A DNA stretch of 64,000 nucleotides. Origin: a virus. Numbering within the stretch: the first letter of the stretch is position 1; each line of letters starts with the position of its first letter. Shown piece after piece: positions 34,930 through 59,600 of this stretch. The notes below the pieces were generated by a model. That model did no database searches, was not told the DNA's origin, and saw nothing but the letters and a program-made list of their open reading frames with translations. The stretch lies in the IMG/VR virus record IMGVR_UViG_3300023499_000220, positions 113,645-177,644 of that record. One strand, written 5' to 3'. The position numbers and the translations under genes were made by a program.

Positions 34930-34958
34930 ATTATACCACATTTTGCCTTAATGGTCAA
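34930..34958 (-). promoter_or_regulatory. Family-B promoter copy 4 (TTGACC-17-TGGTATAAT)
   Basis: Plus-strand text attataccacattttgccttaatggtcaa. Confidence 0.55.
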
Positions 34959-35155: not shown

Positions 35156-35860
35156 TTAGCCTACTGCAGTTTCGTCAGCAGGGGCCTCGGACTCAGCAGC
35201 AGAATCAGCCTCGGCAGTATCCTCAGAGGAAGCCTCCTCAGTGGATTCGGCGGCATCGCCATCAGTCTCGGCGCTTTCAGCCTCGCTGTCGGAAGCCTCA
35301 CTGTCAGCAGCTTCAGATTCAGCAGTGCTCTCAGCCTCGGATGCAGCCGCTTCCTCAGCAGGCACGGAGGTAGCCACCAGCAGATTGCCCTCGGCATCAG
35401 CCTGACCACAGTTGTACAGATATGCGAACGCAGCACTCAGATTGTCGAACTTGGACAGGTCAGGAACCTCAACAGTAGAACCGTCATCAGCGGTCTTGGT
35501 ACCGTCGAAATGAACGCTGCCATCCTCGTCATAGCGAACGGTGACGGTATAGCCATCGCTTGCCAGAGCTTCAGTCATATAAGCGGCATAAGCGTTCATG
35601 GTGGTCTTCATCTGGTCCTCACTCAGAGAAACACCATCGGGCATCTCAGTCAGCTTGCTGTTGTCCAGAACCTCAACTGCGGACTCACTGGTCGCGCCGC
35701 TTGCACTGGCAGCATCATCCTTCTTGCCACAACCAACAAATGCAGTGCAGGCCATTGCCATAGCGAGACACAGCGCAGCACCCTTCTTTACAGAACTCTT
35801 GTTAACCTTCTGCATGAGTAACTTCTCCTTTTTCATGTGTGTTTGATGTGCATATTTCAA
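35156..35860 (-). CDS. acidic lipoprotein (234 aa; lipobox FVGC)
   Basis: Signal peptide with lipobox AFVGC. Asp/Glu/Ala/Ser-rich C-terminus. Preceded by a ~330-nt leader containing tandem palindromic repeats. Confidence 0.5.
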   Translation of the reverse strand: MKYAHQTHMKKEKLLMQKVNKSSVKKGAALCLAMAMACTAFVGCGKKDDAASASGATSESAVEVLDNSKLTEMPDGVSLSEDQMKTTMNAYAAYMTEALASDGYTVTVRYDEDGSVHFDGTKTADDGSTVEVPDLSKFDNLSAAFAYLYNCGQADAEGNLLVATSVPAEEAAASEAESTAESEAADSEASDSEAESAETDGDAAESTEEASSEDTAEADSAAESEAPADETAVG

Positions 35861-36040
35861 TCTAACGCAACCCGTGCAGGTTGCAACTGAAAGCAGCGCA
35901 CGATGCTAGTCTATTTCAATCTAACGCAACCCATGCGGGTTGCAACAGCAAACTTACACATTTTCATGTGTGTTTGTTCGATGTGCATATTTCAATCTAA
36001 CGCAACCCGTGCGGGTTGCAACAGCAAACTTGCACAAACG
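35830..36040. repeat. three tandem ~60-75-bp repeats, each with the core ATTTCAATCTAACGCAACCCGTGCGGGTTGCAAC (an 18-bp palindrome)
   Basis: Cores at 35854..35887, 35913..35946 and 35989..36022. The flanking ttttcatgtgtgtttg(ttc)gatgtgcat and agcaaactt(a/g)caca segments are also repeated. Confidence 0.8.
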
Positions 36041-36176
36041 GAGCAATAAGTTGTCATGCATTTTGTACAGTGTTTGTCTGTTTTTTGACCATACAATATG
36101 GTCAGATGCTACTTACTGCAATGGAATCATATCCTTTCATCATATTGTTTGAACAAGCTTCATGCACTATGCTTAT

Positions 36177-36205
36177 ATTATACCACTAAAAGTATAAATA
36201 GTCAA
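36177..36205 (-). promoter_or_regulatory. Family-B promoter copy 5 (TTGACT-17-TGGTATAAT)
   Basis: Plus-strand text attataccactaaaagtataaatagtcaa. The transcript would traverse the tandem palindromic repeats before reaching the lipoprotein gene. Confidence 0.5.
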
Positions 36206-36212
36206 CAAAGAA

Positions 36213-36246
36213 TAGCGCCCCACAGATTTTTCTGCGGAGCGCTATA
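36213..36246 (-). terminator. probable intrinsic terminator of the 2,672-aa adhesin gene
   Basis: Inverted repeat agcgctccgcag / ctgtggggcgct followed by a T-rich tract on the minus strand, directly after the stop at 36285. Confidence 0.45.
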
Positions 36247-36284
36247 TGTTATCTCTTACACGGAGTAGAGATTATTTCAGTTGG

Positions 36285-39200: not shown

Positions 39201-42200
39201 CAGCGTAGCAGGAGTGATTTCAAAGGTGTTGTTTACGCGGGTGATATTGAAGTTGGCATCATCGCCCTCGATAATCATCGGGTGCTTGCCGACATCTTCA
39301 CCAGCATCGGTGCCAGCGTCAGGACGAACAACCTTCAGATTTGCAAGGTCGCCTGCATCCTCGCTCACATAGTAAGCGCCGTCGCCAGTTGCAGTCCAAG
39401 TCAGTGCGGGGTCAGCCTCACCGTAGACCTTCTTCTGGCCTTCGTCAACAACCACGATTACATCGCGCTTATCGACATGCAGAGAACCATCAACAAAGAC
39501 GATGGGGTCATAGTTCTTTGCGCCCTTGTTTTCCAGACCGCTCATGGTGATGACATAATCGCCAGCAGCAGGACGAGCAGGAATCTCGGACAGAGAACCG
39601 TCAGCATTCTTGATGTTGTAGACAACCGAGCCAGTGAATGCGGAAGCAACGGTGTCATTGTTCTTCAAGCCAGTAACGGTGTAGCTGAACGTGGGAACGG
39701 TGCCGCCATAAATCATGGAGTAACCGCCAGCCACAGTAAAGGTGACCTTAACGGGCTTGATGGTCAGAGTAGCAACTTCCATAGCTTCGGGCTCGGTGGT
39801 GGAAGAACCAACATCGACGGAAGTGCCGGAGCCAGTCACGATGGTGATGGCGTAGTTGCCGTACTTGTTGTACAGAGTGGAGCTGATGGGATATTCACCG
39901 ACATCCTCACCGGCTTTGCGAGTGACAGAGCCGCTCAGAGCACCAGTAGTCAGTTCCAGCGTATTCTTCTTCAGACCATCGTTGGAAATGTTGCCGGAAA
40001 TCTCGGTGTAAGAGAATGCGGGGTCTGCATCGCCGTAATCCTTCTCGTAGTTGGAGAAAGTCAGGGTGATGGGACGAGGAGTGATGGTGATGGTGGAGTC
40101 AATCACCGTCAGGTCGTAGTTGGCAGGCTGTGCGTAGATAGCTTTCAGAGCATAAGTGCCAACGCTTGCGGAAGCAGAAGTTGCACCGGAAGTCAGGGTA
40201 ATGCCCTTAAGAATCTTTTCGGCTTCTGCTGCCTGAACATCAGTAGTAGTCAGCAGACCAGTGCCGCCCTTGATGTAATCCTTCACGTTCATAGAAGTGA
40301 GGGTCTCACCATAGGTCTTTTCGGTTTCGAGCAGGTTGATAACGGCAGTACGCTTATTGATGGTAAAGCGAACATCATTGGTGAAGCTGATACGATAGTT
40401 CTTTGCCATCGTCTGCTCATAGATGTTACCGCTGTAAATCGGATAAGTGCCAGCGTTCTCGCCTGCTTCACGGCTCAGACGAGCCTGTGCGAAGTCGGCC
40501 TTGGGCTCTGCGAAGCTGGTGGTGTTGTAGTCGAAGATGACATAGGTATCGTTGACTGCAAAGCTGGGGTCAGTCTCGCCGTAAGTCTTGGACAGGCCAT
40601 AGCGAGGAGTGATGGTCAGGGGCATCTGATGAACAATCAGCATGTTCTTGCCATCGGGTTCAGACAGCTTAACGCTGTTTGCGGGCTGGTTATCCAGACG
40701 GAAGGTCAGGTTGTAAGAACCTGCATCGTACAGACCAGAAGCGTTCGCAGTAGCCTCAACGGCGATACGAACAACACCCAGAGAAACATCCTTGCCGTCC
40801 ATCTTGATATTGACGGTTTCGCCATCGTGGTAAATCTGAGTGCCATCGGAGGTATTTACGTTGACAGAAACTTCCTTGGCGATGGTGTCGGGCTTCTTCT
40901 CACCGTAAGTAGTCTGCAGTGCGTTGAAGGTGACAGAGACATCAGCCTCTGTGACTTGGAACGTAGCCTGCGGGGCAATCGTTACGATGTAGTTGGGGTT
41001 CTCATCATAAGAGATGGTAGCCTCATAGTTGCCGACAACCGTGGTGGGGTCTTCCCACTTGGTCAGGTCGATGTGGATGTTCAGCGGGCTGCCCTGCGGG
41101 TCAACCACATTGATAGCCTGAGAACCGGTCTCGTCATACAGCGCATAGCTGGGGGTGTTCTTACCGGCAACGCCGTACTTACGGACGCTGTTGGTAGTAC
41201 CCTTGATGGTGACAGGCAGTGCATTGATAGTCAGCGTACCGCTTGTACCATCGCTGTAAGTGCCGGTGTAAACGATGTTGTAGTTGGGGTTGGTGTAACC
41301 GGAAACAACAATAGGATAGGTACCAACACCAGTCAGCTTACCAACGGTATTGTCAACGCCATACTTGATGGTGACAGTGCCGCCCAGAGAAGCGACGGTA
41401 TCATGGATGCCAATTTCATCGTTGCTTGCGAAGTTCTTGTATTCCAGTGCGCCGGTAATGTCGGCATCGCTGGGATTCTCGGAACCATACAGACGCTCAC
41501 GATTCGGAACGGTGATGGTCAGAGTACGCTTGGTGATAGTGTACTTATCGGGAGCATTGAAGGTGATGTCGTAGTTCTTGGCGATTTCAGCAGTCTGGAA
41601 CTGTGCATCGCTGTAAGCGTAAGAGCCAACGGTCTCGCCAACCTCACGAGTCACAACGCAGCCAGCAAAATCGGAACCAACACGGCCACCCTTGCCATTG
41701 ACGGGGTCAAGAGTAAAGGCAACGCCGCCCTTGGCATCACTGTCGCCGTAAACCTTCGTCTGACCGCCCATCACATTGATGGCGATAGGACGCTTGGTGA
41801 CGGTCAGCTTGCTGTTGACAAAACGAACCAGATAGTTGTCGTAACGGTCATAGTTCTTGCCATCGGCATTGGGGTCCCAGTCAGAAGACCAACGCTCCTG
41901 AGAAGCACCCTGCACAGATGCGCTGACAGTGTATTCGCCAACATTGGCAGTTGTAGGAGTGCCGCTGTTGCCAGCCGCATCCACCATGGTAAAGCCAAGC
42001 TTATCCTCGGTCAAACCGATGCTTGCCTGTGTATCGTTCAGCTTGAAACCTTCGATGGATTTAATCTTGCCAGAACGAGCAGCACCATACATTGCGGACA
42101 GGTCATCGAGAGTGACAGTCAGCATTGCAGGATGGATGATGTACTTGCTGTTGATGACCTTGACGTCATAGTAAGCAGTGCATGCAGGGGGAACTTCGAC

Positions 42201-44303
42201 AGTCATCGGATATTCGCCAACATTCTTATTGTCGATATCCTGACGCTGTGTTGTCAGAACCATGCTGACCAGTTTGTTCACACCGTCATCAGCGGTGATG
42301 TCAGAACCAGCGACAATACGCTTATCGGAGGCCACTGCCTGAGCAGCACCGTTATAAGCAACAGCGTCGAAGGTGATGGTGGAAGACTTGCCCTTTTCAG
42401 CCTCACCATAGATGGCATCAATCTGGTCGTTGGTGATGGTTACGTTACGCTTGGTAATTTCAAACGTTGCGGTAGCAAGGTTGATGTTATAGCCATTGAT
42501 AGGCGCATTCGTCTGGATATTGCCGATTGTAACAGTATAGCCACCGGGAGCAGAGGTGATGCTGGGCAGAACAACGGTGGGTTCACCGCTCAGACCAAGC
42601 ATCTCTTTCAGAGCAACTGCGTTGGACTTGTGTTCGTTGTTGGTCTTATACTCGAAATTCGTCTTATCGGTATCAGACCAGCCAGTAATCACGAAGTCAA
42701 CCTGAGGATTCTGCTGACCATACTGACGAGTGGCTTTGCTGCCGGTCGTCTGTACGCCATCATTGCCCTTGAAGACAAATACAGGAGTCAGGGTCAGAGT
42801 TTTTTCGGAAACGACAACATACACATCGCCGGTATTGGGCTGAATGTCGATGTTGTAGTTTGTGTTGCTCTTCGCGGAGGAACCTAAGATGATTTTGTAA
42901 GAACCGGTAGTGTCCTTATCAAAGTTCTCTGTGGTCAGAACATCCGCAGGAAGCAGGTCGCCGTCAACCAGACCACCATTGGTATCCATAACGGTGTAGT
43001 TAATCTGGCTGATGGTATTGCCCTTCGTAACATAGGTGGTATGAGGGACAATGTAAATCTGACGCTTGTTGATAGTCACACCCGTGTCATTGCGGATGTT
43101 TTTGGAAGAATCCAAGTTGGAACCATCAATGATGGTGTAATTCAGACCATTCACAGTAACGCTTGTGGCACCTGTATCAACATAAGTCGGATAAGTACCG
43201 GCATTGCAATGAATGTCTGTGGGATTCTGGCCGTCGCCGTCAGCCGGAGCATACATGATGAAGCTCAGACCGTCGATAGCTGCCTGAATATCCTTTTCGA
43301 CTTCCTGAGAAGTACGGGAATCAGCAGTGCTGTATTCGATGGTCAGACCCTTAGACTTGAAGGAGTCACCGTAGGTGTAGGTAACAGTCTGAGGCAGAAT
43401 GCGAATAACATTCTCCTGACCGCTAATCTTGGTATACTGAATACCAGTTCCTGCGGCAATCTGCTTACCAGTCTCAGCAGCGGTGATTGCCTGATAGTCC
43501 CCGATGACAGTCGTAGAACCGCCGCCATCAAACGCGCTGGCACCGCTGTTGTCTACAGGGTTTTCCTGACGGTCGCAAACCTGCAGATACAGGTCAGACA
43601 TGTCAAGGTATGCGTCCATGACGGGCTCGGCGACCTGCTCATCCTCGCTCAGAGAATAATACATGTCCTCAATGGGTTCCCAGTCATAAACTGCATCCAG
43701 TTCCTCAGTGCGACGCGTGACCATCGCATCAAGAACCGCGTTTTCCTTGTCAGCCTGCCATGCCTTGCTTGCAAGACCGAAGTTGTTTGCAGCAGTCAGA
43801 ATTTCATCTTTACGGCTTACAAGGGCGTTAGCCGCATCGATAAATGCCTGTGCTGCTTCACTGATGCTGCCAGTGGTAGAAGCTTCGCTGGAAGTGCTGG
43901 TGCTTGCACCAGTATCAGAGGCAGCACTGTTTGCGTAGGCAGTGGTCGTTTCAGACCCCGCCTGACTTGTAGCCTCAGAAGAAACATCGCTCGTCACAGA
44001 AGTGTCGCTGGACGCGGAACTTGCTGTGTCGGTAACATCGCTTTTCGGCGCGGGAGTAGTAGCGGAAGAGTCGGAGTTTGTTGTCGTAGTGCTGAGTGCA
44101 TCAGTTTCCTTCGGAGCTTCTTCACTCTGCGTGATTCCACTCGCGCTCTCCACTGCATAAGCAGTGACAGGAGCAAACTGAGACAGGCACATTGCTACGG
44201 CGACAATCGCACTCAAAAACCGCTTACGAGGTTTCTGCATGTTAGTTGCCCTCCTAATAATGTGAGTGTTCTGTGGTTTTACCACAGCCGGATTTATATA
44301 CAC
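36285..44303 (-). CDS. giant cell-surface adhesin with MBG-type repeats (2,672 aa; likely start MQKPRK at about 44240)
   Basis: Signal peptide. About 100 aa Ser/Thr-rich segment. Dozens of repeats of the KxYGxxDPxxTYxV...G...NYxI...GxLTIxKR type. KDD-rich spacer. Pro/Thr linker. C-terminal VVNYKTGVGFG plus TM segment plus KKK tail. Confidence 0.85.
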   Translation of the reverse strand: MYINPAVVKPQNTHIIRRATNMQKPRKRFLSAIVAVAMCLSQFAPVTAYAVESASGITQSEEAPKETDALSTTTTNSDSSATTPAPKSDVTDTASSASSDTSVTSDVSSEATSQAGSETTTAYANSAASDTGASTSTSSEASTTGSISEAAQAFIDAANALVSRKDEILTAANNFGLASKAWQADKENAVLDAMVTRRTEELDAVYDWEPIEDMYYSLSEDEQVAEPVMDAYLDMSDLYLQVCDRQENPVDNSGASAFDGGGSTTVIGDYQAITAAETGKQIAAGTGIQYTKISGQENVIRILPQTVTYTYGDSFKSKGLTIEYSTADSRTSQEVEKDIQAAIDGLSFIMYAPADGDGQNPTDIHCNAGTYPTYVDTGATSVTVNGLNYTIIDGSNLDSSKNIRNDTGVTINKRQIYIVPHTTYVTKGNTISQINYTVMDTNGGLVDGDLLPADVLTTENFDKDTTGSYKIILGSSAKSNTNYNIDIQPNTGDVYVVVSEKTLTLTPVFVFKGNDGVQTTGSKATRQYGQQNPQVDFVITGWSDTDKTNFEYKTNNEHKSNAVALKEMLGLSGEPTVVLPSITSAPGGYTVTIGNIQTNAPINGYNINLATATFEITKRNVTITNDQIDAIYGEAEKGKSSTITFDAVAYNGAAQAVASDKRIVAGSDITADDGVNKLVSMVLTTQRQDIDNKNVGEYPMTVEVPPACTAYYDVKVINSKYIIHPAMLTVTLDDLSAMYGAARSGKIKSIEGFKLNDTQASIGLTEDKLGFTMVDAAGNSGTPTTANVGEYTVSASVQGASQERWSSDWDPNADGKNYDRYDNYLVRFVNSKLTVTKRPIAINVMGGQTKVYGDSDAKGGVAFTLDPVNGKGGRVGSDFAGCVVTREVGETVGSYAYSDAQFQTAEIAKNYDITFNAPDKYTITKRTLTITVPNRERLYGSENPSDADITGALEYKNFASNDEIGIHDTVASLGGTVTIKYGVDNTVGKLTGVGTYPIVVSGYTNPNYNIVYTGTYSDGTSGTLTINALPVTIKGTTNSVRKYGVAGKNTPSYALYDETGSQAINVVDPQGSPLNIHIDLTKWEDPTTVVGNYEATISYDENPNYIVTIAPQATFQVTEADVSVTFNALQTTYGEKKPDTIAKEVSVNVNTSDGTQIYHDGETVNIKMDGKDVSLGVVRIAVEATANASGLYDAGSYNLTFRLDNQPANSVKLSEPDGKNMLIVHQMPLTITPRYGLSKTYGETDPSFAVNDTYVIFDYNTTSFAEPKADFAQARLSREAGENAGTYPIYSGNIYEQTMAKNYRISFTNDVRFTINKRTAVINLLETEKTYGETLTSMNVKDYIKGGTGLLTTTDVQAAEAEKILKGITLTSGATSASASVGTYALKAIYAQPANYDLTVIDSTITITPRPITLTFSNYEKDYGDADPAFSYTEISGNISNDGLKKNTLELTTGALSGSVTRKAGEDVGEYPISSTLYNKYGNYAITIVTGSGTSVDVGSSTTEPEAMEVATLTIKPVKVTFTVAGGYSMIYGGTVPTFSYTVTGLKNNDTVASAFTGSVVYNIKNADGSLSEIPARPAAGDYVITMSGLENKGAKNYDPIVFVDGSLHVDKRDVIVVVDEGQKKVYGEADPALTWTATGDGAYYVSEDAGDLANLKVVRPDAGTDAGEDVGKHPMIIEGDDANFNITRVNNTFEITPATLNVTLAPQSKIYGDENPVLSGDDLIFDGFVVKPVKGNTTPDDAGVLSIANLTFNFTDAEGAPATVASHAGTGKVVPANVENAAANNYTFVYAPVDFVIDKRPITVTAKPQTSIYGDDVAVEDWSDYGTVNVLEYTGDTAKAALVNGDILEGTNLCLVTSASHVGGYDIVPSFSGLAHRVGQASYQDYLVTAMNGTYTVTQRPLTWTIGTVGSVYGNEMAELSNTLTYTGDADKKTIVNGDDLKAIISITQKDVENAVAEEISMKSADGAASLVAESVPESVKNYGAYDMVGSYDNDDYLITIVNGVYTIGERLVEVTVTEPKDIVYGDTTNPDFTVNAVATNGDGTHGAAVKPDSLGLKMALVYTPFENDKTTDNAQTAPLTADAKATLTPDIASGDDGVESDSQFKTENVKNAGTYTYTVTSDYDAAVEQNYAVTINVVDADKNEADGQFVIARKDLTVTLDPNPVVKLYGTKTEIPEIKTSGYAFDETAETVKLPSFELIVASSIDGIFGNVGLTKDAFKYVGGAYDNYNYLPTTGDLEVQRLHLADVEPATIVGTVADEKTGKPVEVTKKTTDDLSGLYFNSKVEVIAPKGYAIGTSDSLTDAEWAEKMVISANSEKVTSTYYLIDLKTGAITEMGTITTSVDTEAPVVASAFAADKVDSTNKTDLLNEKFVKFESTINVFITGEETGKAPEKDDDKKDDKKDDTDKKEDSGKKDKTESGTDEKVPAESEKTETTNDKTEATTLRIAHGKPALFTTGDETGDENGNDVVATPDENGGKDDTEDPDFVPVVKVKDSVPAISALDGEYNSGVAKIQYYKVNGSAIAKSADGDYTFDETKFETVNVTNIDKDNGYVTFKLSPDWTGYIVTRTVDKAGNYGDVRVASVKLENPPEESRPTPTPVVKNEPAPTPAPVVVNYKTGVGFGAEVIVPVIVVVALIGVGAFVIVKKKNGDSEEKAAEKPEDKTEEKKQ

Positions 44304-44667: not shown

Positions 44668-47600
44668 TTATTCAGCGGAATCATCCTTATGGTTATCTTT
44701 GTTGTCGTTTTCGTCCTTCTTGCGCTTGTGGTTTACTACCACCAGAGCAGCGACGCCAATGCCAACCATTGCTACCAGACCAACAATGCTCTGTGCAAAT
44801 CCGATACCCGTCTTCTTGTTGCTCGTGAAGATAGAGAAGAGGGAGAAGGGTTTGCCGTCTACCTTGAAGATATCGAGCCAACCAATCGGCGGGGTCTTGG
44901 GCTTCTCAGTAGGAACAGGGGTCGGAGTAGGCTTCGGGTTGTCGGGAGTCGGAGTCGGTTTAGGCTCGTCAGGCGTTGTGGGAGTAGAGGGCTTCACAAC
45001 AGGGACTTTCACCTCGTTGGAAGGTTTCTCTACATCTTCATCAATCGGCTTGGACGGGTCCTTACCATGACCCGGATTCTCGGGGTCTTCGGGATTCTGA
45101 CCCGGAGCCTTAGCGACAGCCACGTTAATGACATCGTGTCCGGCATCCGCGTCAACGGCAACATAAGAATAGGTCAGAGTGAAGGATTCGCCAACAGGGA
45201 TACGAGCAATAGTGAACGTTGTCGTTGCGCTATTGTAAGTATATCCATCACCGTTCTGGGCTTCAATATGGCTTGCGCCGTCATTGTTGTCCTTTACGGT
45301 TACATTGACAAGGTCTACTTCACCGGTATTGGTTACTACCACACGATAATTGATGGTTTCACCGACATTGACTTTCGTCTTGTCAGCACTCTTCACAATC
45401 GTGAGGCTCTTTTCGAGCGGAATATCAGTTTCCGTACCGGAACCCGGAACTTCCACATCGACCTTGTTGGACGGAATATCCGTATCAGGGTCAATCGGTT
45501 TCGTCGGGTCTTTACCCTGTCCGGGATTCTCCGGGTCTTCGGGGTTCGTACCGGGAACATGAATCGTCGCTACGTTTTCAAGAATGTGCGTAGTCACATC
45601 GGCGATACCGACAGTATAAACGTAGTGGACAACCACATCGCCACCAGCAGGAATCGTGTCGATGGTGAATACACCATTCTCATAGTGATAACCAGCGCCA
45701 TCCACTGCGAAAATGCTTCCGGAGAAGTTATTCTCATCAGTCAGAGCAGCATTCTGAATATCGTGGTCTTTGCCATTGTGTACCGTTACGGTATAGGTGA
45801 CAGTCTCACCCGGCTTTGCGACAGTCTTGTTTGCAGACTTCCAGATGGTGACAACGCCATCATCAGGCTTCTTCACATCGACTGTATTGGACGGGATATT
45901 ATACTGCTCGCCATCGTGCGTGTACTTAATGGTTGCGGTATTTTCCATAACGCTCTCATCGGTCGTCTCTACCGTATAGGTATAAACGATATCAAGAGCC
46001 TCACCGGCATCCAGATAACCGATAGTCCAAGTACCGTCTCCGTTATAGGTATAGCGGTTAGAACTCTCAGCCGTAACATCACCCGCAAAGTTGTTATGGT
46101 CTGCGACAGTGATATCGTTTACGGTTTCGTCTGTCATATTCTTCACCGTAATGGTGTAGGTCACAACATCTGTCACCTTAGCGATATACTTATCGGCATC
46201 CTTTTCAACATCGATAGGCGGTGTCGGGTCTTTCACAACAGCAGCGTTCAGAACCTTAGGAGCATCAGCGGTAACTACCACATAGGTGAAGTTAAGCGTT
46301 ACGCTCTCGCCAGCCTTTACAGTGCTGATGGTATAGGAGTTGTCGCCGTTATCCGCAACGCCATCCATGGGCACAAAGTTGAGCGTTCCGTTGCCATCGA
46401 AGAAGTCTTCGACCACAACATTTTCTGCATCAGCCTTGCCCTTGTTGGCGACAGTAACCGTATAGTTGAGCGTATCGCCAACCTTGGCTTCTGCCTTATC
46501 AACGGACTTGGTGATTTCGATTACAGGAATCTCTGTTTCGGTTTCAGAGCCGGGAACTTCCACATCAACCTTGTTGGACGGAATCTCCGTATCGGGGTCA
46601 ATGGGCTTCTCGGGGTCTTTGCCGTGACCCGGATTATTCGGGTCTTCAGGATTCGTGCCGGGAACATGGATTGTTGCAATGTTTTCGAGAATCTGCGTGG
46701 GCACATCAGCAATTTCAACCGTATAGGTGTAGTGGATAACCACATCACCGCCTGCGGGAATCTTATTGATTGTGAATTCGCCGTTCTCGAAGGTGTAATC
46801 TGCACCGTCAACGCTTACGATTTCACCAGCAAAGTTGTTGGTATCTGTCAGACGAGCGTTTTCGATGTCGTGATTCTTTCCGTTATGAACCGTGACGGTA
46901 TAGGTTACAACCTCACCCGGCTCAGCCTTTGTCTTATCTGCAGCCTTGCGGATGGTAACAACACCATCATCGGGCTTCTCGACATCGACGGGGTTAGAGG
47001 GAATATTGTAATCTGTGCCATCCTTGCTGTAAGTCACATTTGCAATGTTTTCGATGACGGTGGCATCCTCAGCCTGCATCGTATAGGTGTAGGTGATATG
47101 GATGGTCTCGCCAGCGGCAATAGTCGGAATAGTCCATGTCTTATTGCCATTGTAAGTGTACTTGTCAGCGTTTTCGGCCTTGATTTCGCCCTTGAAGTTG
47201 TTAGTATCGGTGACGGTTACATTGTCAACAGGCTCAGAAGTGGTGTTCTTCACGGAAATCGTGTAGGTTACAACCTCATCTACCTTTGCAATGTGCTTGT
47301 CGGCTTCCTTCTCAACGTCAACAGGCGGTGTCGGGTCTTTGATTACTGCGGCGTTCAGTACGAGAGGTTCGTCTCCTTCAACTACAACATAGCTGAAACG
47401 AAGTTTTACGCTCTCCCCTGCCTTGACCGTAGAAATTGTGTAGGTGTTGTCTCCGTTATCTGTCACGCCATCCATGGCCTTGAAGTTCAGCGTTCCGTTT
47501 CCGTCAAAGAAATCCTTAATCAGGATATTCTCAGCATCCGCGTTACCGCCGTTCTTGACAGTGACGGTGTAGTTTAGCGTATCACCAATCTTGGCAGTAG

Positions 47601-50600
47601 GCTTATCTACAGACTTGGTAATAGAGATTTCCGGAATCTCTGTCTCAACTTCGGAACCGGGGACTTCCACTTCGACCTTATTGGACGGAATGTCCGTATC
47701 GGGGTCAATAGGTTTATCCGGGTCATTGCCGTGTCCGGGATTCTCAGGGTCTTCCGGATTCGTGCCGGGCACATGTGCCGTGGCAACATTTTCCAGAATG
47801 TGAGTGGGTACATCTGCAATCTGCACCGTGTAGGTGTAGGTCAGAACAGCGTCTGCACCAGCAGCAATCTTATCGATTACAAAGTGTCCGTCAACGAACT
47901 TGTAGCCGACACCATTTGTGCCGGTAATCGTTCCAGCAAAGTTGTTGGAATCGCTTACGACCACATTGGTGATGTCATGCGCCTTGCCGTTGTGAATCGT
48001 AACTGTGTAGGTCACGACCTCACCGGGTTCTGCAATCTTCTTGTCACCGCTCTTGACAATCGTAACTTCGCCATCCTTCGGGACAACGACTTCAACGGGG
48101 TCTGCCTTGATGACATACTCGCCGTCATCGGTCGTGTAGCGAACATCAGCTTCGTTGACCAGCGTAGAGGGGTCGGTAGTCTTCACCGTATAGGTGTAGA
48201 GAATATCGATGCTTTCACCAGCCTTGATGCTGGGGATAGTCCAAGTATGGTTGCCATTGTAGGTGTACTTGGCGTTGTCTTTAGAGGTGATTGCACCTGT
48301 AAAGTTGTTGGTATCGCTGACCAGCAGGTCGGTAACGGCCTTATCGGTCGTGTTCTTCACCGTGATGGTGTAGTTGACGACTTCGTCGACCATCGCTACA
48401 TGCTTGTCTGCGGTCTTCTCGATGTCAACAGGAGGAGTCGGGTCTTTCACAACAGCAGCGTTCAGGACCATCGGCGCATCTCCGGCAACGACCGTGTAAG
48501 TGAAGCGGAGCGTAATGCTCTGACCCTTCTCCACATTCGCAACCGTATAGGTGTAATCACCGTTATCCGTCACACCGTCCATCGGAACGAAGTTCAGGAC
48601 ACCGTTACCGTCAAAGAAATCCTTGACGACAGCGTTCTTGACTGCCTGTCCGCCAACATTCGTCAGCGTAATCGTGTAGTTCAGCGTATCGCCAACCTTG
48701 GCTTCCGTTTTGTCTACACTCTTAACGATTTCGAGCTTGCCTTCCGGCACATCAACATGCGTGCCGTCACCGGGAACCTCAACATCGACCTTGTTGGAAG
48801 GAATCTCCTCGTCAGGGTCGCCGGGGTTCTTGCCGGGGACATGAGCCGTTGCAACATTTTCAAGAATCTTGGTCGGAACATCGGCAATCTGGACTGTGTA
48901 GGTGTAGTGAACCACTGCGTCACCGCCAGCAGGAATCTTGTCAATGACAAATTCGCCGTTGATGAACTTGTAGCCAGCACCGTCAACGCCCTCAATCTTG
49001 CCTGCGAAGTTGTTCGCGTCAGTCAGACGGACATTCTTGATGTCGTAATCCTTACCGTTATGAATCGTAACCGTATAGGTAACGACCTCGTTCGGTTCAG
49101 CCTTGGTCTTGTCGGCAGTCTTAAAGATGGTAACGACACCATCGTTAGGCTTTTCGACTTCGACGGGGTTGGACGGAATATCGTAGTCAGTACCGTTGTA
49201 GCTATAACGCACATCGGCAGTGTTTTCAATGACAGTTTCATCGCTTGCCTGCATCGTATAGGTGTAGGTAATGTCGATGGACTTGCCGGATTCGAGCGTT
49301 GCGATGGTCCAAGTCTTATCACCGTTGTAGGTGTAGCCCTTGCCATCCTTGCCTTCGATTTCGCCCTTGAAGTTGTTCGTATCGCTTACCAGCAGGTTCG
49401 TCAGCGTGTCCTTGGAATTGTTCTTCACCGTGATGGTGTATGTAACAATCTCATTGACCTTGGCGATATGCTTGTCAGCGCTCTTCACAATATCCGTGGG
49501 CGGTTCGGGAGTTGTGATAACTGCCGCGTTCAGAACCTCAGGTGCGTCACCGTCAACCACCACATAGGTGAAGTTAAGCGTTACGCTCTCGCCAGCCTTG
49601 ACACTTGCAATCGTGTAAGTGTCATCACCGTTATCGGTGACGCCATCCATAGCCACGAAGTTCAGTGTGCCCTTGCCGTCGAAGAAGTCTTTGACTGTGA
49701 CATTCTCAGCATCGCCCTTGCCGTTGTTCTTGACAGTAATCGTGTAGTTCAGAGTATCACCGACAACGGCTTCATTTTTATCCACACTCTTTGTCAGAAC
49801 AAGGTCAGGAATCTTGGTTTCAGTCTCGGAACCCGGAACCTCAACATCGACAGGATTCGAAGGAATCTTCTCATCGTTATCGATAGGCTTGTTCGGGTCT
49901 TTACCGTGACCGGGGTTGTTCGGGTCTTCGGGGTTCGTTCCGGGAACATCAGCCGTAGCGATATTCTCCAGAATCTGAGTAGGCACATCACCAATTTCAA
50001 CCGTGTAGGTATAGGTCAGAGTGACCGAAGCGCCTGCGGCAATCTCAGCAATATGGAACTCACCGTTCTCGAAGGTGTAATCTGCGCCGTCAACGCCAGT
50101 GATTTCACCAGCGAAGTTATTAGCATCGGTTACTACAACATCGTGAACATCGAAGCCCTTGTTGTTGGTAACGGTGACATTGTAGGTGACGACCTCACCC
50201 GGCTTTGCCATCTTCTTGTCAGCTTCCTTGTGGATGGAGACAGTGCCCTTATCGGGTACGACCACATCGACAGTCGGCGTATCAAGTTTCACGGTATCGC
50301 CGTTCTCGGAATACGTCACATCAGCCTTGTTCTCGAGGAGCTTCTCATCATTGCTCTGTACCGTGTAGGTATAGGTAATGTCGATGGTCTCCCCTGCTCC
50401 GATTTCCGGAATCGTCCAAGTATTATCGCCGTTATAGGTGTACTTGTCTGTATTGGCGGCATTGATGCTGCCAACAAAGTTATTGGTATCCTTGACAGTG
50501 ACATTCGTCTTTGCCTTGGTATCGGGGTTATACACGCTGATGGTGTAAGTCACGATTTCATCGACAAATGCGAACTTCTTGTCAGCCGTCTTGGTGGGTT

Positions 50601-53600
50601 CGAGCGGCGGGTCAACGGGCGGTGTCGTGACGACAGCGGCGTTCAGGACCTCAGGCTCATCGCCTTCCACGATAACATAGGTGAAGCGGAGCTCCATGAA
50701 TGTACCGGCAGGCAGTTTGTTGATGGTGTAAGTGCCATCACCGTTCACTACAACACCGACAGCCGGGATGTAGTTGAGTTTACCGTGTCCATCGAAGAAG
50801 TCTTCGACCAGAATATTTTTCAGTTCGCCATCGCCAACATTAGACACCTTAACGGTGTAATGCAGCATATCGCCAACAGAAGCACTCTTCTTGTCTACGA
50901 ATTTCTCGACTTTCAACTTGCCCTCGGGCGGGTTGACAGGAACAGGTACATCACTGCCGGGAACCTTGACGGTGACCTCGTTAGAAGGCTTCGTCTTTTC
51001 ATTCTCAGGAGTCTGGTCTTCGTCAGCGAACCAGTAATGCAGCGTAGCCACATTCTTCAGCTCGTTGTAAGTATCCTGACCCTTACCGGCATCGGTGTTC
51101 AACACAATGTAATCATATTCTACCGTGACAGTCTTGCCAGCCGGAATAGTGCCGACCTTGATGACTGCGGAACCTGCAGATGCAGATTCCAGAGTACCGT
51201 TCTTGACATTCGTGATAACGCCGTTGAAGTTGTTCTTGTCGTGCAGCGCTGCATTCACATAGTCAACAGTGTCATTGTTGTGCATGACGACGGTGTAATG
51301 CACCGTATCGCCGATGTTTGCAATGGCCTTGTCTGCCTGTTTTACAACGGTGGGTCCGACATGTTCCGGCGTGGGAGTTTCGGGGATGACAGGGATATCA
51401 ACCTCATTGGAAGGAATCTTTACCTTGCCAGAATCCGTCACATATGTCATTTCGGCGTTATTGACAAGCATGGTATTGGGAGCATCTTCATTCATTACCG
51501 TGTAGGTGTAGACAATGTCTACGCTCTCACCAGCGCCGATAGAAGAAATATTCCAGACCTTATCGCCAATATAGCTTACAACATCAGTGTTTTCGGCAGG
51601 CGTGATAACGCCCGTGAAGTTGTTTGTATCCTTGACCTCAACATTCGTCTTGGTCTCGTTAGTCGTATTGGTAACGGTAATGGTGTAAGTCACCACTTCG
51701 CCAACCACTACGGTCTGTTTATCTGCCTTCTTCTCGATTTCGGGAACTTCCGGAATCTCAACAGCAGCATTGTTCACGACATCCTTGTCGCCTTCCTGTA
51801 CGGTATAGGTGACAGGAATCTCAACAACCTCACCAGCCGCAATTTCTGCGATGGTGAAGGAATGAGTCGCTGCGTCATAGGTGTACTTGTCAGAACTTGC
51901 AGCATTGATTTCGCCAATGCCGTCATTGAAGTCGCGCACAACTACATTCTGAGCAGTCATTGTGCCGTTGTTCGTAACGGTAATGGTGTAGTGAATGGTA
52001 TCGCCAATCATCACACTGGATTCAAGAGAAGTCTTCACAACGCGAATATCGCGGTCAGGCACTTCGCCTACATGGACAGTCTCAGTATCGGGGTCGCTCG
52101 TAACAGTCTTGTTGTCGGGGTTCTTGCCCTCAGCAACAGCCGTATTCACGATGTTACCGTTATCGAGGTTCATATCCTCTGCCACAGCAGTGTAGATATA
52201 AGTGATTTCAACGGATTCGCCTGCGTTCAACTCAGGAATCATCCACTTGCCGTTTCCGTCATACATCAAATCGCCAGTGTACTCGACAGTGCCGTTGCCG
52301 TTGGACGTATCGGTAACGATAACATTCGTCAGCTTGGTATTGCCGCTGTTCTTAACGGTCAGAGTATAGGTTACGGTCGTGTCATTGCCGTTCATATCAA
52401 CGAAGCTCTTGTCAGCGTTCTTTACGATGGTCAGTTCATCACGGAGCACATCAACCTCAACAGGCTTAGAAGGCTCTTCGATGTCCTTGTCACCCGGAAT
52501 CTCAGTATCGGGATTCTTGGGAGCGTGAGCAGTAGCTACGTTGATAATCGTTTCGGGGTCACCGTTCTGCACAATATACAGGTAATTCAGCGTAACGGAA
52601 TCGCCGACATTCAGAGCAGGAATGGTGAACAATCTGGTTTCGGGGTTATAGGTATATCCGTCGCCAGTAGAGACGATAAACATACCCAGAGCATTGGTGT
52701 TATCGGAGACGGTAACATTCGTCATATCGACAGTGCCGTCGTTCGTGACAGTGACCTGATACTTGACGACTTCGCCGGGATAAGCGTGGTCGCGGTCTGC
52801 AGACTTGACAATCGTCAGGTGCTTGTAGTACAGCGGCACGATTACTTCGTTGGAATCGACAGGTTTCTCAGGAATAGTCGGGTCTTCGCGAGCAGGAATC
52901 GTTGCGGTAGCAATGTTATCCAGCTTGCCGTTTGCGAGGTCATCTGCAACAACCGTGTACTTATAGGTGATGGTTACGGACTTACCAACGCCAAGGCTGG
53001 TGATTGTCCATGTTCCATCATCGTTGACACGATAGCCGAAGTGGAGCTTCGTGTTCTCGACAGGCTCGCCCATGAAGTTGTTCGTATCCTTTACGACAAC
53101 ATTTTCAAGCTTCGTGTTGCCCGTATTGGTGACTTTCAGCGTGTAAGTGACGACATCACCTACGCCAGCCTCAGTCTTATCAGCACTCTTTTCGATGGTC
53201 AGATTCTGACGGATGATTTCCACATCAACATCAGGAGTCTCGACCAACCAATCCTTGTTAGGCTCGGTATAGTTCGGAGTGGTGCTGCCATCAGGGTTCT
53301 CAGTATAGTTCTCGACTACCTTCATATCGGTAATCTTAGCGTTGTTTTCGAGGATATCGTTGTTGTTGGTGCCGTGGTCGGTCGGGTCTACCGTGTAGGT
53401 ATAGGTGAACGTTACGGCATTGGTATGGGTTTCATCGCGCAGATGGGAAATCTCTGCGATAACGAACTCGCCCTTCTCTGCATCATAGGTCACACCGTTT
53501 GCCTGAGACAGGACAGGAACACCAACGAAGTTGTTGGTATCTTTAACGATGACGTTGTGCAGGTCATGACTGGTCGCGTTCGTAACGGTAATCGTGTAGC

Positions 53601-56600
53601 GAATCACATCGTAATCCGTAGCGCGTTCACGGTCAGCAGATTTCTCGATAGAGACAATTTCCTTATCGCGAACGGTCAGAGTACCATCCACATACTTGAT
53701 GATGTAGTTGGCATTGCTGCCGCTGCCATCTTCGGTGTTGATGATAACTGCATCGCTGGAAACGTTCTTGCTGGAACCCACTTCGGTCTGAGAACCGGTT
53801 ACGGTCACAGAATCCATCTTATCGTGAATGCCAAGCAGGTCGTTATCTACGAGTTCCGGAGCGTAGGTATAGCCGGGTTCCGTCAACGGAGTGCCGTCAT
53901 ATACCTTTTCTGCGGAGTTTGCAGTAATGGTTACCTCACGCGGGTCAATGAAGAAATGTCCGGGAGTTACTGTGCCAATCTCAATATTATCCACCTCAGT
54001 ATAGGTAGGAACAATGGAATAGCCGGGGTTCTCGGTACGAACATTCTCACCCGGAACACGAGCTGCATCCAGATTCAGGGCACGGTCGATATAATCGCGC
54101 AGGTCCTTATCCGGAGTGTAAGGCTCATCCTTCTCGTTCGTGAGCGTATAGGAAACATTGAACTTATCGGGGTCGTTATCACCGTAGGTCTTGCGGTCGT
54201 CTTCTGCCTTGATGTTAATAATCAAGGGTTTGACGGTCAGCTTACCATCGATGTAAACGAAATCGTAGTTCGGGTTATGGAAAGTAGAATCCTTGGCAGA
54301 TACAGGGTATTCACCAACAGGGCTCCACTTCTCTGCATCAGTCTTGGTCTTGAGCGCATCTTTACCACCGATATCATCGATGGTGTCACCGCGCTTATAG
54401 CCGGTAATGGTTACGTTGGGTGTCGGGTTATCTTCGCCGAAATACTTTTCGTCGTCAATAACTGTAACAACGATGGTTGCAGGAACAATGGTCAGAGTTC
54501 CGGGAGTGGTAATGATTTCGTAGTTGCCGGACGGGTCAGTGCCATCAATGGTGATGGGATACTTGCCTACCTGCTCACCGTCATCAGTATCAGCGCCGGG
54601 ACGCTTTGTGGTGATATCGAAGAAGTCTTCGTCACCGGGATTGACCAGTTCTTCGGGGTCAGTAATCGTCCAAGTCAGCGGGTCGGGGTCTTTCTCTCCG
54701 TAAACCTTCTGCTGGTCATCTGCCTTCACATGGATAGGTTTCTTACCAATCGTCAGGTCACCGCCAACATAGATAAACTTGTAATTGCTGTTGTCAGCAA
54801 CCAACTGCTGTCTATCGTAGTTGATGGGATAATTACCAACTTTCGTCTTATTCGTTACGGGATTGCCAGCGTTATCGTTGCAGTACATTGTAGCAGTGCC
54901 GGAGACCTTGGATTCATCGTCCTTGATACCGGTACCGGTTTCGTCCTTAACGTCACGACCGACAAAACCTGTGATGGAATAAGTGAATTCGGGAATCTCA
55001 TCGCCGTAGGTGGTCTTGTATCCGCCATCGACCGTAACAGTGAGCGTTGCGGGGATGATTTTCAGAGAACCATCGTATACGGTAACGGCATAGTTCTTGT
55101 TGTTTGTATCGTACTTTGCGGAAATGAGGTAATCACCATCATAGAGGGTAGTTCCCCACTTATTGAGAGAATCTGCTGCAGTGACATCGCCGCGCACAAC
55201 ATTCTCACCCTTGGTGCGGTACAACTCAACATTCAGCGGGCTGTTTTCGGGGTCAATCAGGCCAATCACATTGCCAGCATTGTCTTCGTAATGGAAGGTA
55301 AATGCCGGGTCAGCGGTGCCGTAGGTCTTGACCTTATGGTCAATGCGAACAATCAGTTCCTTCGGGTTGACAGTGATATCGCCATTGACATAGCGGATAA
55401 CATAGTTCTTCTCGAAGTTTGTGTTGCTCTTGACTTCGAAAGTGGAGCCGATATGCTCTTCACCGTCTTCCAGAACAACGCAATCCGGGTTCACCGCATC
55501 CTCATTGTTGTTGCCAGCAGTTACGATGTACTTGCCAGCGTCAGACAGGTCGAAGCACAGAGTAGCGAAGCCAAGTTCACCGTTCAGAACGGTTTCCTTC
55601 GTGTCATCACGCTTGAAGCCGGTAATATCGGCATCAAATGCGGGATTCTCTTCGCCATAGGTCTTGGAATAGCCACCCTTTACGGTAACAACCAGCTCAG
55701 CCGGAGTAATCGTAAAGTTGCCATTCTCCATGGTAATAACGTAGTTGGTGATGCCATCCTTGCTGACAGGGCTGATATCGTTGGCGTTGATGGCGTAAGC
55801 CTTGCCGAACGAATGCTCGCCAGTCCAGACATCTTCACCGGGTTCACGAGTCACGCCAGTACCTTCGAGGTCGCCGGGCTGGACAGGCACATCCGCGCCT
55901 TCCTTCTCGGTGAGAACAGGGCCATTCGCGTACTCAATGTAGTAGTTGCCATCTTCGCCACGGACACCGTCATGGAGCGTGTACTTCAATTCGGGGTCAG
56001 CGTCGCCGTAAACCTTGGTGTTATCCGCAGCAATAACGGAAACGGGGCGAGGAATGATAGTCAGGTTGCCAGCGGTAATCGTGATGTCGTCATCATCATA
56101 GATGGTGCTGTGGACACCGGACAGGCTGATGCAATCCTTGTAAGTGCCGCTGGAACTGGTCTGCGTATCCAGATGGGTAAAGGTAAAGGAATTGGTGTTG
56201 ATACCGGCTTCCTCTGCCGTGATTTCAACAGCCTCGCCGTTTTCTACCTTAAACACATGATAGGTGTAATCGGTAGAACCATCGTAGAAGCGGTTGACAC
56301 GGTCGCCGTAATAGCGAACCTTATCATCAACGGTAATCATCAGACCCTGACGCTTGACAATGAGGTCGTTTGCGTAACGGTACTCAAAGTCGTAGTTCGG
56401 GTTATCCAGCTCAAGCTGTTTCTGGTCGTTTGCTGCGAGGTTTCCAATCTGACGGTCCTGCGGCGTGGAGTAGACGGGATAAGAACCGACTTCTTCACCC
56501 TCTGCACGAACCAGATTGAAGACGATGGGAACCTTATCGGGGTTCACAACAACGCTTGCATCCGTGATACGGCTGCCTGCGCCGAGCTTCTGCTGACCAT

Positions 56601-59600
56601 TTACGGAATTATGGGTAATCATATCGGTCAGGGTGAAATCCTGAACCTTATCAGCATCGCCCAGTTCCTTCTGCCAGCCAGTGACTTCCAGCAGCATCGG
56701 ACGAGGTTTGATAGTCAGAACACCGGGCGTGTAGTTCGCAATCGTATAGTTATAACCGCCATCTGCGTTTTCACGAGGTACGAGAATCGTATGCTCTTCG
56801 CAGTAACTCTTATCGCCATACAGGTAATTGGAACCGACATCGGTGTACTTATTGTAGGTCAGGTTGATGTAATCGCTCAGAGTATTCTTTGCGGTTTCAA
56901 GAACCTTTGCGGTTGCGCCATCGTTATTCTTTAAAGCAACATCAGCGGTATCGCCGTGCTTCAAACCAACAACGGTCAGCGTGTAGTCGTTTTTGTTATC
57001 TTCGCCGTAGTAACGCTCCTGATTACTAAATACGATTGTCAGCGGGACAGGCGTAATAGTCATCTTAGCGTCGTTCGTTTCGACGATATAGTTGCTTGCT
57101 GTGCTCTTTTCGTAAGAGATGCGGATGGTATAGCCTTCGTCACGGACATTCTCGCCGCTGTCACGAACTGCCTTGATGCCGAGCATTTCGCTGGTAGGCT
57201 TAATGATTTCGCCATCAACAGTCCACTTCAATGCGGGTTCCGTGCCGCCGTATGCCTTCGTTGCATCCAGAGCCGCAATGCGAATCAGACGAGGATGTAC
57301 TTTCAGAACATTGGACTCGTAAACGAGTTCGTAGTTGGAAACTACTTGTCCTTCACTGTTCGTGACGGTCTTGATGCCAAGAGTATTGCCGTAACCAGTG
57401 TTTTCGTTCACGGATACAGGATATCCGTTTACAGGAACATGGGTATGCGGATGGTCATCGTCATGATAATGCTCATGACCTTTGTGCATTTCATTGTATT
57501 TCTCCAAGCAGTAAGCGCATTCTTCTTCGGGAACATCCGTCTGATAGATTACATCACTGCTCTGTGTAGCGGTTGTCAGATAAGGCAGATTAGAAGTGCC
57601 GTTCTTGAATGCCAGAGCGGTACGAGAAGCGCCGTTTACGACTTCAACTACATTACCGATGGTATCATTGCCAATCAGATGCATGTTGTTGTAATCAACG
57701 GTAGCGTCATCACCCAGAACGGTCCAGTTGTTCTCGTCCGAAACATCCAGCTCATTGCCTTGGTCATCTGTGCCAAGAACCTTGAATGTGGAGTTGAAGA
57801 ACGGGTTCGTTGTACCGTAAATCTTCTGGCTTTCGTCAACGGAAATCATAATCTTGCGGGGCTTGACCTCGATAGAACCGGGGTCTTCCGTGACAACATA
57901 GTTCTTCAATACATCATAGTTGAACTCGTTCAGACCAATGTAAGATACAGGGTAAGAACCAGCATCCGTTGTTTCACTCGGTACTACATTGTAAACGAAC
58001 TTGCTCTGATAGTTGTTTGTTTTCTTCGCTTTCAGGTCGAGTTTTTCATCGTCCTGTGCAGCAGTCTTATGGTCTTCGACCAGACCTTCCATGGTCAGCC
58101 AGCTATCAGAACCCTTATTCCAGTAGTAGACATCGTCTGCATACGGAAGTTTGATATTCTTGAAGCCATGTCCATAAGTGGTGCTTACGCTCTTGACCTG
58201 CGCACGCAGCGTCGTACGGTAAATACCACCGCTGAAAGTCTTGTCTGCGATATAGTAGTCGTTGTAGTTATTGTTCACAAGGTACATTTCATTGTTCTGT
58301 TCAATGTCACGCACCAGCGCGTTCGTATCATCGATATCCTGTACGGTGTACTCAAATACGATGTTTACGGTGCCGCCAACCGGAATTGTGTCAATGTAGA
58401 ACTCTGTGCCCTGCTGGTTCATACGAATGCCATTTGTGGATTTCAGGGTGATGGGACCATTACCTGCAAATCTGCTCTTCAGACGCAGGTTCTGGATAGC
58501 AACAGGAGCAACATAATTGTTCTGCGCTGCCAGACCATATCCGGTATCCTTGTTCGTTACTGCAATCGTAACAGTCATCTTCTGACCAACCTGCGGGGTG
58601 GTCGTGCTGTAGCTGTACTTTACAGAATACGGCAGATGGCGAATCGTATTCGTCGAAAGACCATTGTAACGGTCTTCCTTGATGACACCATTGTCGCCGT
58701 TTGCATCATACCCGGTCAGCTGTTCGCCAGCATTGCTGTCAGCATAAGAACCAACATAGGTCTGAGCATTCAGTTCAACGGAATCGTAGTTGGTGATATT
58801 ATCAATATAGATATTTCCCTGTCCTTCTTCACCGATATTGGCGTTGTAGTAGGAATCATATACCTTGATGTTGTTCGGATTCACTACCGTGTTCTGGTAG
58901 TTATCCTGTTCGGTCTTGGTATAGCGGGTAATATCGATGTTTTCCTGTTTACCAGCAAGAATCATTTCATATGCCTGCTCGATAGTCACATTCTGATTAT
59001 CGTAGACAGTCGTGTCGGTCAGATACTTGCCGTTTCCGATATCATTGGAGTTACCATCGTAGTTCCACTTGTATTTGTTCACATCATGATACTGACTGTG
59101 GACATACAGAGGACGAGGATTGATGGTACCAGTGAAATCTTCACTTGCAATATAATAGTTGTCGAACGGATTGTTAATCAGTTCAAGAATCGTAACGGTC
59201 TTAATACTGTGCAGACCCGTGTGGATGGACTCTCTGAAACTCGTCTTTGCGAAGTCCTCAGGAGCATAGTTTTCGCAATAATAGCCGTAAGCCAGTGTGC
59301 TGTTCAGCGCGACAGTATCGCCGTGAACAATACCGGAATCAGCAGTTGCTGCTTTGATTTTAATATCAGATACCTTTGCGGTGCTGATATTGTCGTAAAT
59401 CTTATTGTTGTCATAGCTGTAAAGATGCAGCGGGCGCGGATAAATATCGAAGTATACGACATTACCGTTGCCGGATACATATTCATCAGGTGTAGTGCTT
59501 TCGCCACGGACTACATAAGTCTTGCCGGGTTTCGTGTTTTCCCAGCAGAAAGTAACTTCGTACTTGCCCGTGTAGGTTGCCGTAGCAGTGTAGGAGCCGG

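Follow-up and report, generated by a model that had tools for sequence, protein, structure and literature searches.

The window analysed here is a stretch of 64,000 nucleotides (nt) from the IMG/VR virus record IMGVR_UViG_3300023499_000220 (positions 113,645 to 177,644 of that record). Its last third is taken up by a giant gene on the minus strand, read as a single open frame of 6442 amino acids (aa) whose N-terminus lies beyond the window edge. Towards the C-terminus, the product contains three domain subtypes, A, B and C, which recur five times as A-B-C triplets, and this array is the main subject of the analysis. The parts of the gene are listed below.

44668 to 63996, minus strand: giant open reading frame (ORF), with a non-repetitive N-terminal part of about 2200 aa, MBG_2 repeats, about 24 CLIPPER/CLIPPER_2 domains and a putative C-terminal anchor
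50917 to 52047, minus strand: degenerate triplet T0 (aa 3984-4360), with weak subtype scores (A 66.5, B 114.9 and C 46.4 bits)
49804 to 50916, minus strand: triplet T1 (A1-B1-C1; aa 4361-4731)
48736 to 49803, minus strand: triplet T2 (A2-B2-C2; aa 4732-5087), a short unit of 1068 nt
47629 to 48735, minus strand: triplet T3 (A3-B3-C3; aa 5088-5456)
46522 to 47628, minus strand: triplet T4 (A4-B4-C4; aa 5457-5825)
45406 to 46521, minus strand: triplet T5 (A5-B5-C5; aa 5826-6197)
44962 to 45405, minus strand: terminal hybrid domain (aa 6198-6345), an A-like core with a degenerate junction-like insertion
44671 to 44961, minus strand: C-terminal tail read from the translation, with a Pro/Thr-rich spacer, NKKTGIGF, a hydrophobic segment and a Lys/Arg-rich end

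The five full triplets, delimited with a phmmer seed and one hidden Markov model (HMM) per subtype, covered aa 4361-6197 (window 45406-50916, minus strand) and were flanked by the degenerate triplet upstream and the terminal hybrid domain downstream. The subtype HMM scores were clear-cut among the domains. In a self-blastn of 36-64 kb, in-register diagonals were found at offsets of 1107, 2214, 3282 and 4389 nt, the longest of which extended over 4252 nt (1157 bits, 66.4% identity). Therefore, the periodicity is real at the DNA level and not confined to similarity between protein domains. The unit size was 369 aa (1107 nt) with one exception of 356 aa (1068 nt), T2, which is short because C2 carries the shorter form of the insertion described below. 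The super-repeat of three subtypes in at least five copies with a period of about 1.1 kb, proposed in the original prediction, was thus recovered as five A-B-C copies of 1107 nt. The openings quoted for the subtypes (VEKFVDK, KTADKK and IHKEADKK) did not recur; each was found once, all in unit 1, and the other units carried variants.

The C-type domains contain a Pro/Asp-rich insertion of 26-41 aa, here called the junction, at the following positions.

49825 to 49947, minus strand: junction of C1 (aa 4684-4724), VPGTNPEDPNNPGHGKDPNKPIDNDEKIPSNPVDVEVPGSE
48763 to 48840, minus strand: short junction of C2 (aa 5053-5078), VPGKNPGDPDEEIPSNKVDVEVPGDG, 15 aa shorter
47650 to 47772, minus strand: junction of C3 (aa 5409-5449)
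46543 to 46665, minus strand: junction of C4 (aa 5778-5818)
45436 to 45558, minus strand: junction of C5 (aa 6147-6187)
44986 to 45108, minus strand: degenerate junction-like insertion of the terminal domain (aa 6297-6337), mismatched at 14 of 41 positions

A near-identical peptide had been expected between the units. This was borne out for the four 41-aa copies (at aa 4684, 5409, 5778 and 6147), which differed from the quoted string at 2-6 positions, but one copy is short, one is degenerate, and the peptide lies inside the C domain. No junction copy was present in U1, the unit-1 copy that is preceded by domain C0. The 26-aa form was also found in the distant orthologues P0006 and P0008. In an alignment of 16 domains, the insertion came after the strand that bears the Asn (ILENxAT) and before the final one (IPSNxVxVxVP), at a site where B-type domains have a short hairpin and A-type domains are without the final strand. 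An AlphaFold2 model gave the junction of C4 as ordered, with a predicted local distance difference test (pLDDT) score of 82-85, and the next ten residues as a low-confidence linker (pLDDT 58). Judged from the alignment and the model, the junction peptide is not a linker, and the true inter-domain linker comes after it. The junction peptides shared 33-36 of 41 residues (80-88%), while their third codon positions were only 41-59% identical. Therefore, the near-identity of the junctions results from selection on the peptide and not from recent gene conversion.

The divergence between the units was much greater than the high identity that had been claimed for them. DNA identity among the five full units was 58.6-73.3% in global alignments and 66-68% by blastn, and protein identity was 48-72%. 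Synonymous sites were saturated in every unit pair (proportion of synonymous differences, pS, 0.65-0.76), and the ratio of nonsynonymous to synonymous divergence (dN/dS) was 0.10-0.25. The longest exact match between units was one tract of 41 nt, and the remaining unit pairs shared at most 29 nt.

49559 to 49599, minus strand: 41-nt exact tract, copy 1, in A2, encoding KAGESVTLNFTYVV
46277 to 46317, minus strand: 41-nt exact tract, copy 2, in A5, 3282 nt from copy 1

Eleven 31-mers were repeated, exactly the number which this single tract supplies, and no 55-mer was repeated in the gene. The collapse of the gene in short-read assemblies, which the original prediction had foreseen, is not to be expected from these k-mers and was not encountered, and more than 25 assemblies, probably of short reads, keep the same order. 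Domains of the same type had a mean identity of 60% (38-77%), compared to 38% (30-46%) for adjacent domains. Purifying selection on the protein has preserved the similarity within subtypes, and silent sites in the DNA have diverged until they are saturated.

All close relatives of the giant protein were metagenomic proteins, and the sequences compared were consensus assemblies, probably from short reads. Five units were found in the window, in the ENA scaffold L006 (98.3% identical to the window over 18.9 kb), in the IMG/VR contigs L010 and L011 (98.0-98.4% over 19.75 kb) and in six array-spanning ORFs (P0125, P0126, P0132, P0134, P0151 and P0157). Six units were found in the ENA scaffold L001, in the IMG/VR contigs L012-L015 (97-99% identical to L001) and in at least nine ORFs. 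Runs of N break the gene in both scaffolds, inside unit 1 in L006 and upstream in L001. The orthologous units of the five- and six-unit alleles were 95.4%, 96.5%, 98.6%, 84.8%, 82.3% and 86.2% identical, and the extra unit of the six-unit allele, V5, was 73-77% identical to any other unit. Thus, V5 is an old unit and not a recent expansion. Along the gene, identity between the window and L001 was 96-98% over a tract of 2.8 kb (about 50.7 to 47.9 kb, units 1-3) and 77-88% elsewhere, which suggests a recent allelic exchange with one boundary near the C3 junction.

Four units were found in two separate samples (L002, Logan, ERR12087270; L017, ENA, SAMN11098209), 98.5% identical over 13.3 kb and with the same A3/A4 hybrid junction. 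The parental sequences share only about 6 nt at this crossover; therefore, an artefact of a k-mer graph is impossible, and we read the four-unit form as an inherited allele. The L002 ORF is split by a 1-nt insertion (GGGG to GGGGG) at about 9935-9945 of L002 (window about 49715), which could be a sequencing error or homopolymer slippage. Three units were found in a single JGI contig, L016, in which V4, the fourth unit of the six-unit allele, is fused to V7, the terminal partial unit, with 3324 nt missing. The crossover lies in a 20-nt identical tract within junction-coding sequence. Since L016 is a singleton, the three-unit allele could be real or a mis-join at k = 21.

The length alleles therefore differed by whole super-repeats in register, across lineages that are 87-97% identical, with crossovers on identity tracts of 6-20 nt at or beside junction-coding sequence. 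No copy-number difference was found within a lineage, among at least nine five-unit contigs and at least 13 six-unit contigs, each group 98-99% identical. The length-variable alleles that had been predicted thus exist in a slow, lineage-level form, with four, five or six units and possibly three in one contig. A further three contigs, L003 (Logan, ERR13985049), L004 (ENA, ERZ21883113) and L005 (Logan, ERR13991556), matched the window or L001 at 97-99% identity and had large in-frame deletions in the giant gene; L003 and L004 also had deletions in the neighbouring gene, and L003 is additionally without window 24627-40148. Repeat collapse was rejected for these contigs, since the sequences joined share 2-11 nt of microhomology and the joins fall out of the repeat register. 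Either the deletions are real and affect a gene that is costly, or the contigs are chimeric.

The domains of the array belong to the CLIPPER families. The C-terminal half of the giant protein matched PF01345 (DUF11/CLIPPER) in 23 stretches (787 bits against a cut-off of 24.6, E = 7.6e-242) and PF24346 (DUF7507/CLIPPER_2) in 20 stretches (538 bits). The NCBIfam model TIGR01451 matched in 23 stretches (531 bits), and the RrgB isopeptide-domain model TIGR04226 gave three matches. Since 2025, DUF11 and DUF7507 have carried the names CLIPPER and CLIPPER_2, the crystal structure PDB 9IFR shows an immunoglobulin (Ig)-like domain with a Lys-Asn isopeptide lock, and such domains typically build the stalks of fibrillar adhesins (PMC12617251). 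The 16-domain alignment contained ten invariant columns, K5, D39 and N92 among them, and this Lys/Asp/Asn triad was invariant in 11 three-domain units from the window, the six-unit allele and two orthologues at 53-57% identity. A single unit searched with phmmer against the PDB gave no match; only the 16-domain profile reached 9IFR, its best match (E = 4.3e-5). Counted by hand, the alignment pairs the Lys and Asn columns with residues 10 and 101 of 9IFR_A, which are 91 apart like Lys-715 and Asn-806, the two partners of its isopeptide bond, and pairs the Asp column with the Asp in the LND motif, at most one position from the published Asp-748. Each stalk domain would thus carry a self-generated intramolecular Lys-Asn isopeptide lock. 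In the AlphaFold2 model of C4-junction-A5-B5 (mean pLDDT 85.4), three beta-sandwiches were formed, all-beta domains of 7-9 strands. With this model as query, Foldseek matched nothing more specific than generic multi-Ig arrays, integrin legs among them.

No signal peptide was present at the first Met of the giant frame, which evidently extends past the window. The homologues P0007 and P0009 extend the N-terminus by about 885 residues and start with MSKGKTWQRVASAFLAAVMTFSTFSTTIAYA, a putative Sec-type signal peptide; P0009 overlaps aa 1-376 of the window protein at 84% identity. MBG_2 was found by Pfam in seven stretches of the N-terminal 3332 aa, and in this part no other Pfam family and no adhesive or ligand-binding domain was recognised. 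A self-comparison with chopped queries, run because whole-protein self-blastp returned only the self-match, detected no internal repeats in the N-terminal 2200 aa or so. Tandem Repeats Finder was run on 40000-64000. The array was not detected since the maximum period of the program was 500, and the only tandem repeat reported was a Gly/Ser linker, GGGGSGGGSGGGSTGSGSGGSGG, at 60516-60607 (minus strand, aa 1130-1161) in the N-terminal region. At the C-terminus, NKKTGIGF, about 24 hydrophobic residues and HKRKKDEN were read by eye, and an LPXTG motif was absent. A Pfam scan of the 39 other ORFs in the window found no sortase. The tail is a putative membrane or envelope anchor. Its layout (44671-44800), KTG(I/V)G followed by hydrophobic and basic residues, is common to the C-termini of P0006 and P0008 and to that of the neighbouring gene (36288-36400). 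Apart from the missing LPXTG, the layout resembles a sortase signal; it could represent a new type of sorting signal or just a membrane anchor.

We consider it probable that the array is an old, diverged A-B-C CLIPPER stalk of an anchored surface fibre in which the block number changes rarely and in register. The region would form the membrane-proximal stalk of a Sec-exported, C-terminally anchored giant fibrillar surface protein. In this stalk, Ig-like domains of the CLIPPER type (DUF11/DUF7507) would be strung together, every one of them locked by an isopeptide bond. The A-B-C block would have been duplicated long ago, leaving five full copies, and purifying selection at the protein level would hold domains of the same type similar while silent sites saturate. 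Because of the A-B-C order, neighbours are always of different subtypes, and this alternation (neighbours 30-46% identical) should limit misfolding between neighbours, as in titin. The block number would set the stalk length, with about three Ig-like domains and a predicted length of the order of 10-15 nm per block. It would shift rarely, by in-register recombination at very short identity at or near junction-coding sequence, with the result that four-, five- and six-block alleles would become fixed in different lineages. The crossovers may occur by short-homology or relaxed recombination or by replication slippage; the data indicate no particular enzyme. Several points weigh against this explanation. 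In-register recombinants exist, and the array is thus not recombinationally inert. B-C neighbours are 43-46% identical, slightly over the usual figure of about 40% for avoiding misfolding. Copy-number heterogeneity within a population would be invisible in consensus assemblies, and Nei-Gojobori dS is only rough near saturation. Furthermore, the isopeptide bonds, the surface display and the stalk geometry were inferred.

A different behaviour would be that of a contingency locus of the Periscope type, a published concept (PMC8201768), in which frequent expansion and contraction by RecA or a phage recombinase produce rapid size or antigenic variation. The three-, four-, five- and six-unit alleles, which differ exactly in register, would fit such a locus, as would the crossovers at or beside the junction-coding sequence, the best-conserved stretch, and the 96-98% tract (about 47900-50700) inside a 77-88% identical gene, a sign of recent exchange between alleles. 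However, the units have only 58-73% DNA identity with saturated silent sites, and their sole long exact tract is 41 nt, with at most 29 nt in the other pairs. The copy number is constant in the at least nine five-unit and at least 13 six-unit contigs, the unit separating these alleles is anciently diverged, and the four-unit allele has been inherited across strains 1.5% apart. A contingency locus is therefore quite unlikely. The same values, with the crossovers of 6-20 nt, also do not support the original prediction of a high-identity substrate for RecA. A mis-assembly of a repetitive gene, affecting the window array or the variant alleles, is suggested by the N-gaps in L006 and L001, by the many homologous ORFs that are fragments (most of them), by the 20-nt tract at the L016 join, which could be mis-joined in a k = 21 graph, and by the large deletions of the singletons L003, L004 and L005. 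Nevertheless, L006, L010 and L011 reproduce the order of the window at 98.0-98.4% over about 19 kb, as do the six spanning ORFs, and there is no repeated k-mer at k = 55 and one tract at k = 31-41. The four-unit junction, with about 6 nt of identity, was recovered by two assemblers from two separate samples, and the junctions of L003-L005 show microhomology of 2-11 nt and no repeat collapse; hence an artefact appears highly improbable.

The remaining alternative is not exclusive of the stalk explanation and compatible with it. The triplet, or its Pro/Asp-rich insertion, would be a functional module, that is, a ligand-binding, processing or docking site whose copies tune avidity and not length. 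The insertion is the most conserved segment, is under purifying selection, is predicted to be ordered and has been kept in orthologues at 53-57% identity; the dN/dS of 0.1-0.25 further means that every unit is maintained. In contrast, Pfam and NCBIfam scans matched the insertion to no known binding or cleavage family, one unit has a 15-aa-shorter form that is conserved across orthologues, and CLIPPER arrays are described as stalks (PMC12617251). We regard a role as a functional module as unlikely.

The viral classification of the record is that of IMG/VR, where the giant gene is present on six viral contigs of 89-389 kb (L010-L015). The neighbouring genes that could be assigned were as follows.

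36285 to 44303, minus strand: second giant MBG gene (about 2651-2672 aa), directly downstream of the giant fibre gene
31224 to 32759, minus strand: flotillin/SPFH protein, among otherwise unannotatable ORFs
24210 to 25346, minus strand: ParM/Alp7A-like actin (PF21522, PF17989, PF22128)
14084 to 15424, minus strand: SecY (446 aa; PF00344, 291 bits)
13566 to 13883, minus strand: SecE (105 aa; PF00584)
12344 to 13507, minus strand: trigger-factor-like FKBP prolyl isomerase (387 aa)
3056 to 3841, minus strand: radical-SAM protein, among otherwise unannotatable ORFs

In the second giant protein, a signal peptide and a Ser/Thr-rich N-terminus are combined with five MBG_2 repeats and an end composed of NYKTGVGF, a hydrophobic segment and KKK. 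About 21 kb downstream of the two giant genes, SecY, a small ORF, SecE and the trigger-factor-like FKBP form a cluster (12344-15424, minus strand), which may serve the giant proteins as an export set of their own. The SecY sequence cluster had 1455 metagenomic members, on contigs of about 355-382 kb at the longest, and the nearest named homologue was a Gemmiger SecY (49%). By tblastn, SecY matched phage records at only 35-41% identity; these records were mostly unannotated, some of them fragments of 2-10 kb, and we suspect that they are host DNA. A literature search on phage-encoded SecY or giant phage adhesins found nothing relevant. Actins of the ParM/Alp7A type serve the segregation of plasmids and of some phages.

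Most other ORFs of the window had no Pfam or PHROGs match; in PHROGs, 19 of 20 window ORFs were unmatched, and the other one matched a family of unknown function. No tRNAs were found in the window, and no capsid or terminase gene was seen within it. A scan of 185,579 GTDB species genomes found no relative, only DUF11 proteins at 30-37% identity in unrelated taxa. Flanking sequence of 25 kb had no megablast match among plasmids and phages, and the array had no tblastn match in phage genomes. These features suggest a huge phage, or a large extrachromosomal element of some other type, from the human gut. A wider picture can be offered tentatively, and we are doubtful of it as a whole: an isopeptide-locked fibre on an abundant human-gut element, about 370-390 kb in size, which would be a huge phage or phage-plasmid with a Clostridia host. 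The element would carry an export set of its own (SecY, SecE and the trigger-factor-like protein) together with two giant surface proteins and would remodel the host surface, with the block number as a heritable length dial that varies from one element lineage to another.

The array offers a clean natural example of how a very long adhesin stalk could keep many near-equivalent domains without unstable DNA, by block duplication, silent-site divergence and alternating subtypes, the opposite design to that of Periscope Proteins. The series of four-, five- and six-block alleles is a defined system for relating stalk length to function. Short reads suffice to assemble the gene, and its copy number is accessible in metagenomes that already exist. 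Of more interest, as a distinct question, is what very abundant virus-classified gut elements with their own SecY and SecE display on their hosts.

Among known systems, the array is closest to CLIPPER stalks such as that of Acinetobacter silvestris B9T28_05395 (9IFR; PMC12617251), given the Pfam scores far above threshold, the aligned Lys/Asp/Asn triad and the tandem domains of a very long, putatively secreted protein that ends in a putative anchor. It differs from them in the strict three-subtype super-repeat and the 26-41-aa Pro-rich insertion of the C subtype, and in a non-canonical anchor (KTGxG, hydrophobic and basic residues) with no LPXTG. Furthermore, the gene is carried by a virus-classified element of about 370-390 kb instead of one of the bacterial chromosomes covered by GTDB. 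Multidomain proteins as a general rule have neighbouring domains that differ in sequence, and Periscope Proteins break this rule (PMC4660218, PMC8201768). With Periscope Proteins (Sgo_0707 SHIRT, SasG/Aap, Rib, Esp and CdrA; PMC8201768), the window protein shares a rod of tandem folded domains, here at least seven MBG_2 repeats and about 24 CLIPPER-type domains, and alleles that differ by whole repeat units, altering the projected length. However, Periscope arrays consist of highly identical DNA repeats with near-identical neighbours, whereas the window array has neighbours at 30-46% and units at 58-73% DNA identity, so that the highly identical DNA and protein repeats by which Periscope Proteins are recognised were not found in it. 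The variation of the window gene, as seen in consensus assemblies, was also between lineages only.

Titin, a ruler protein within eukaryotic cells, has Ig/Fn3 super-repeats of 7 and 11 domains in its A-band part, and its domains carry no isopeptide lock. The window array resembles it, without homology, in that equivalent positions are more alike than neighbours (60% versus 38% here) and in an origin by block duplication. Among other giant CLIPPER proteins, neighbours in P0114 of Chitinophaga sp. were 46% identical, and at offsets of 360 and 710 aa the identity rose to 70-75%, which makes a three-domain super-repeat, and an offset analysis gave a period of about 670 aa for P0012 from a Clostridium sp. 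metagenome-assembled genome. Both are only 24-25% identical to the window protein. The CLIPPER proteins of C. difficile, Romboutsia and C. butyricum were flat at about 40% across offsets, with no super-repeat, and that of Amycolatopsis was about 80% identical at every offset and thus Periscope-like. Higher-order periodicity is therefore not unique to the window protein among the CLIPPER giants. The window array is a CLIPPER fibrillar stalk with a super-repeat, of a kind that is already known, and its architecture is real and far beyond chance.

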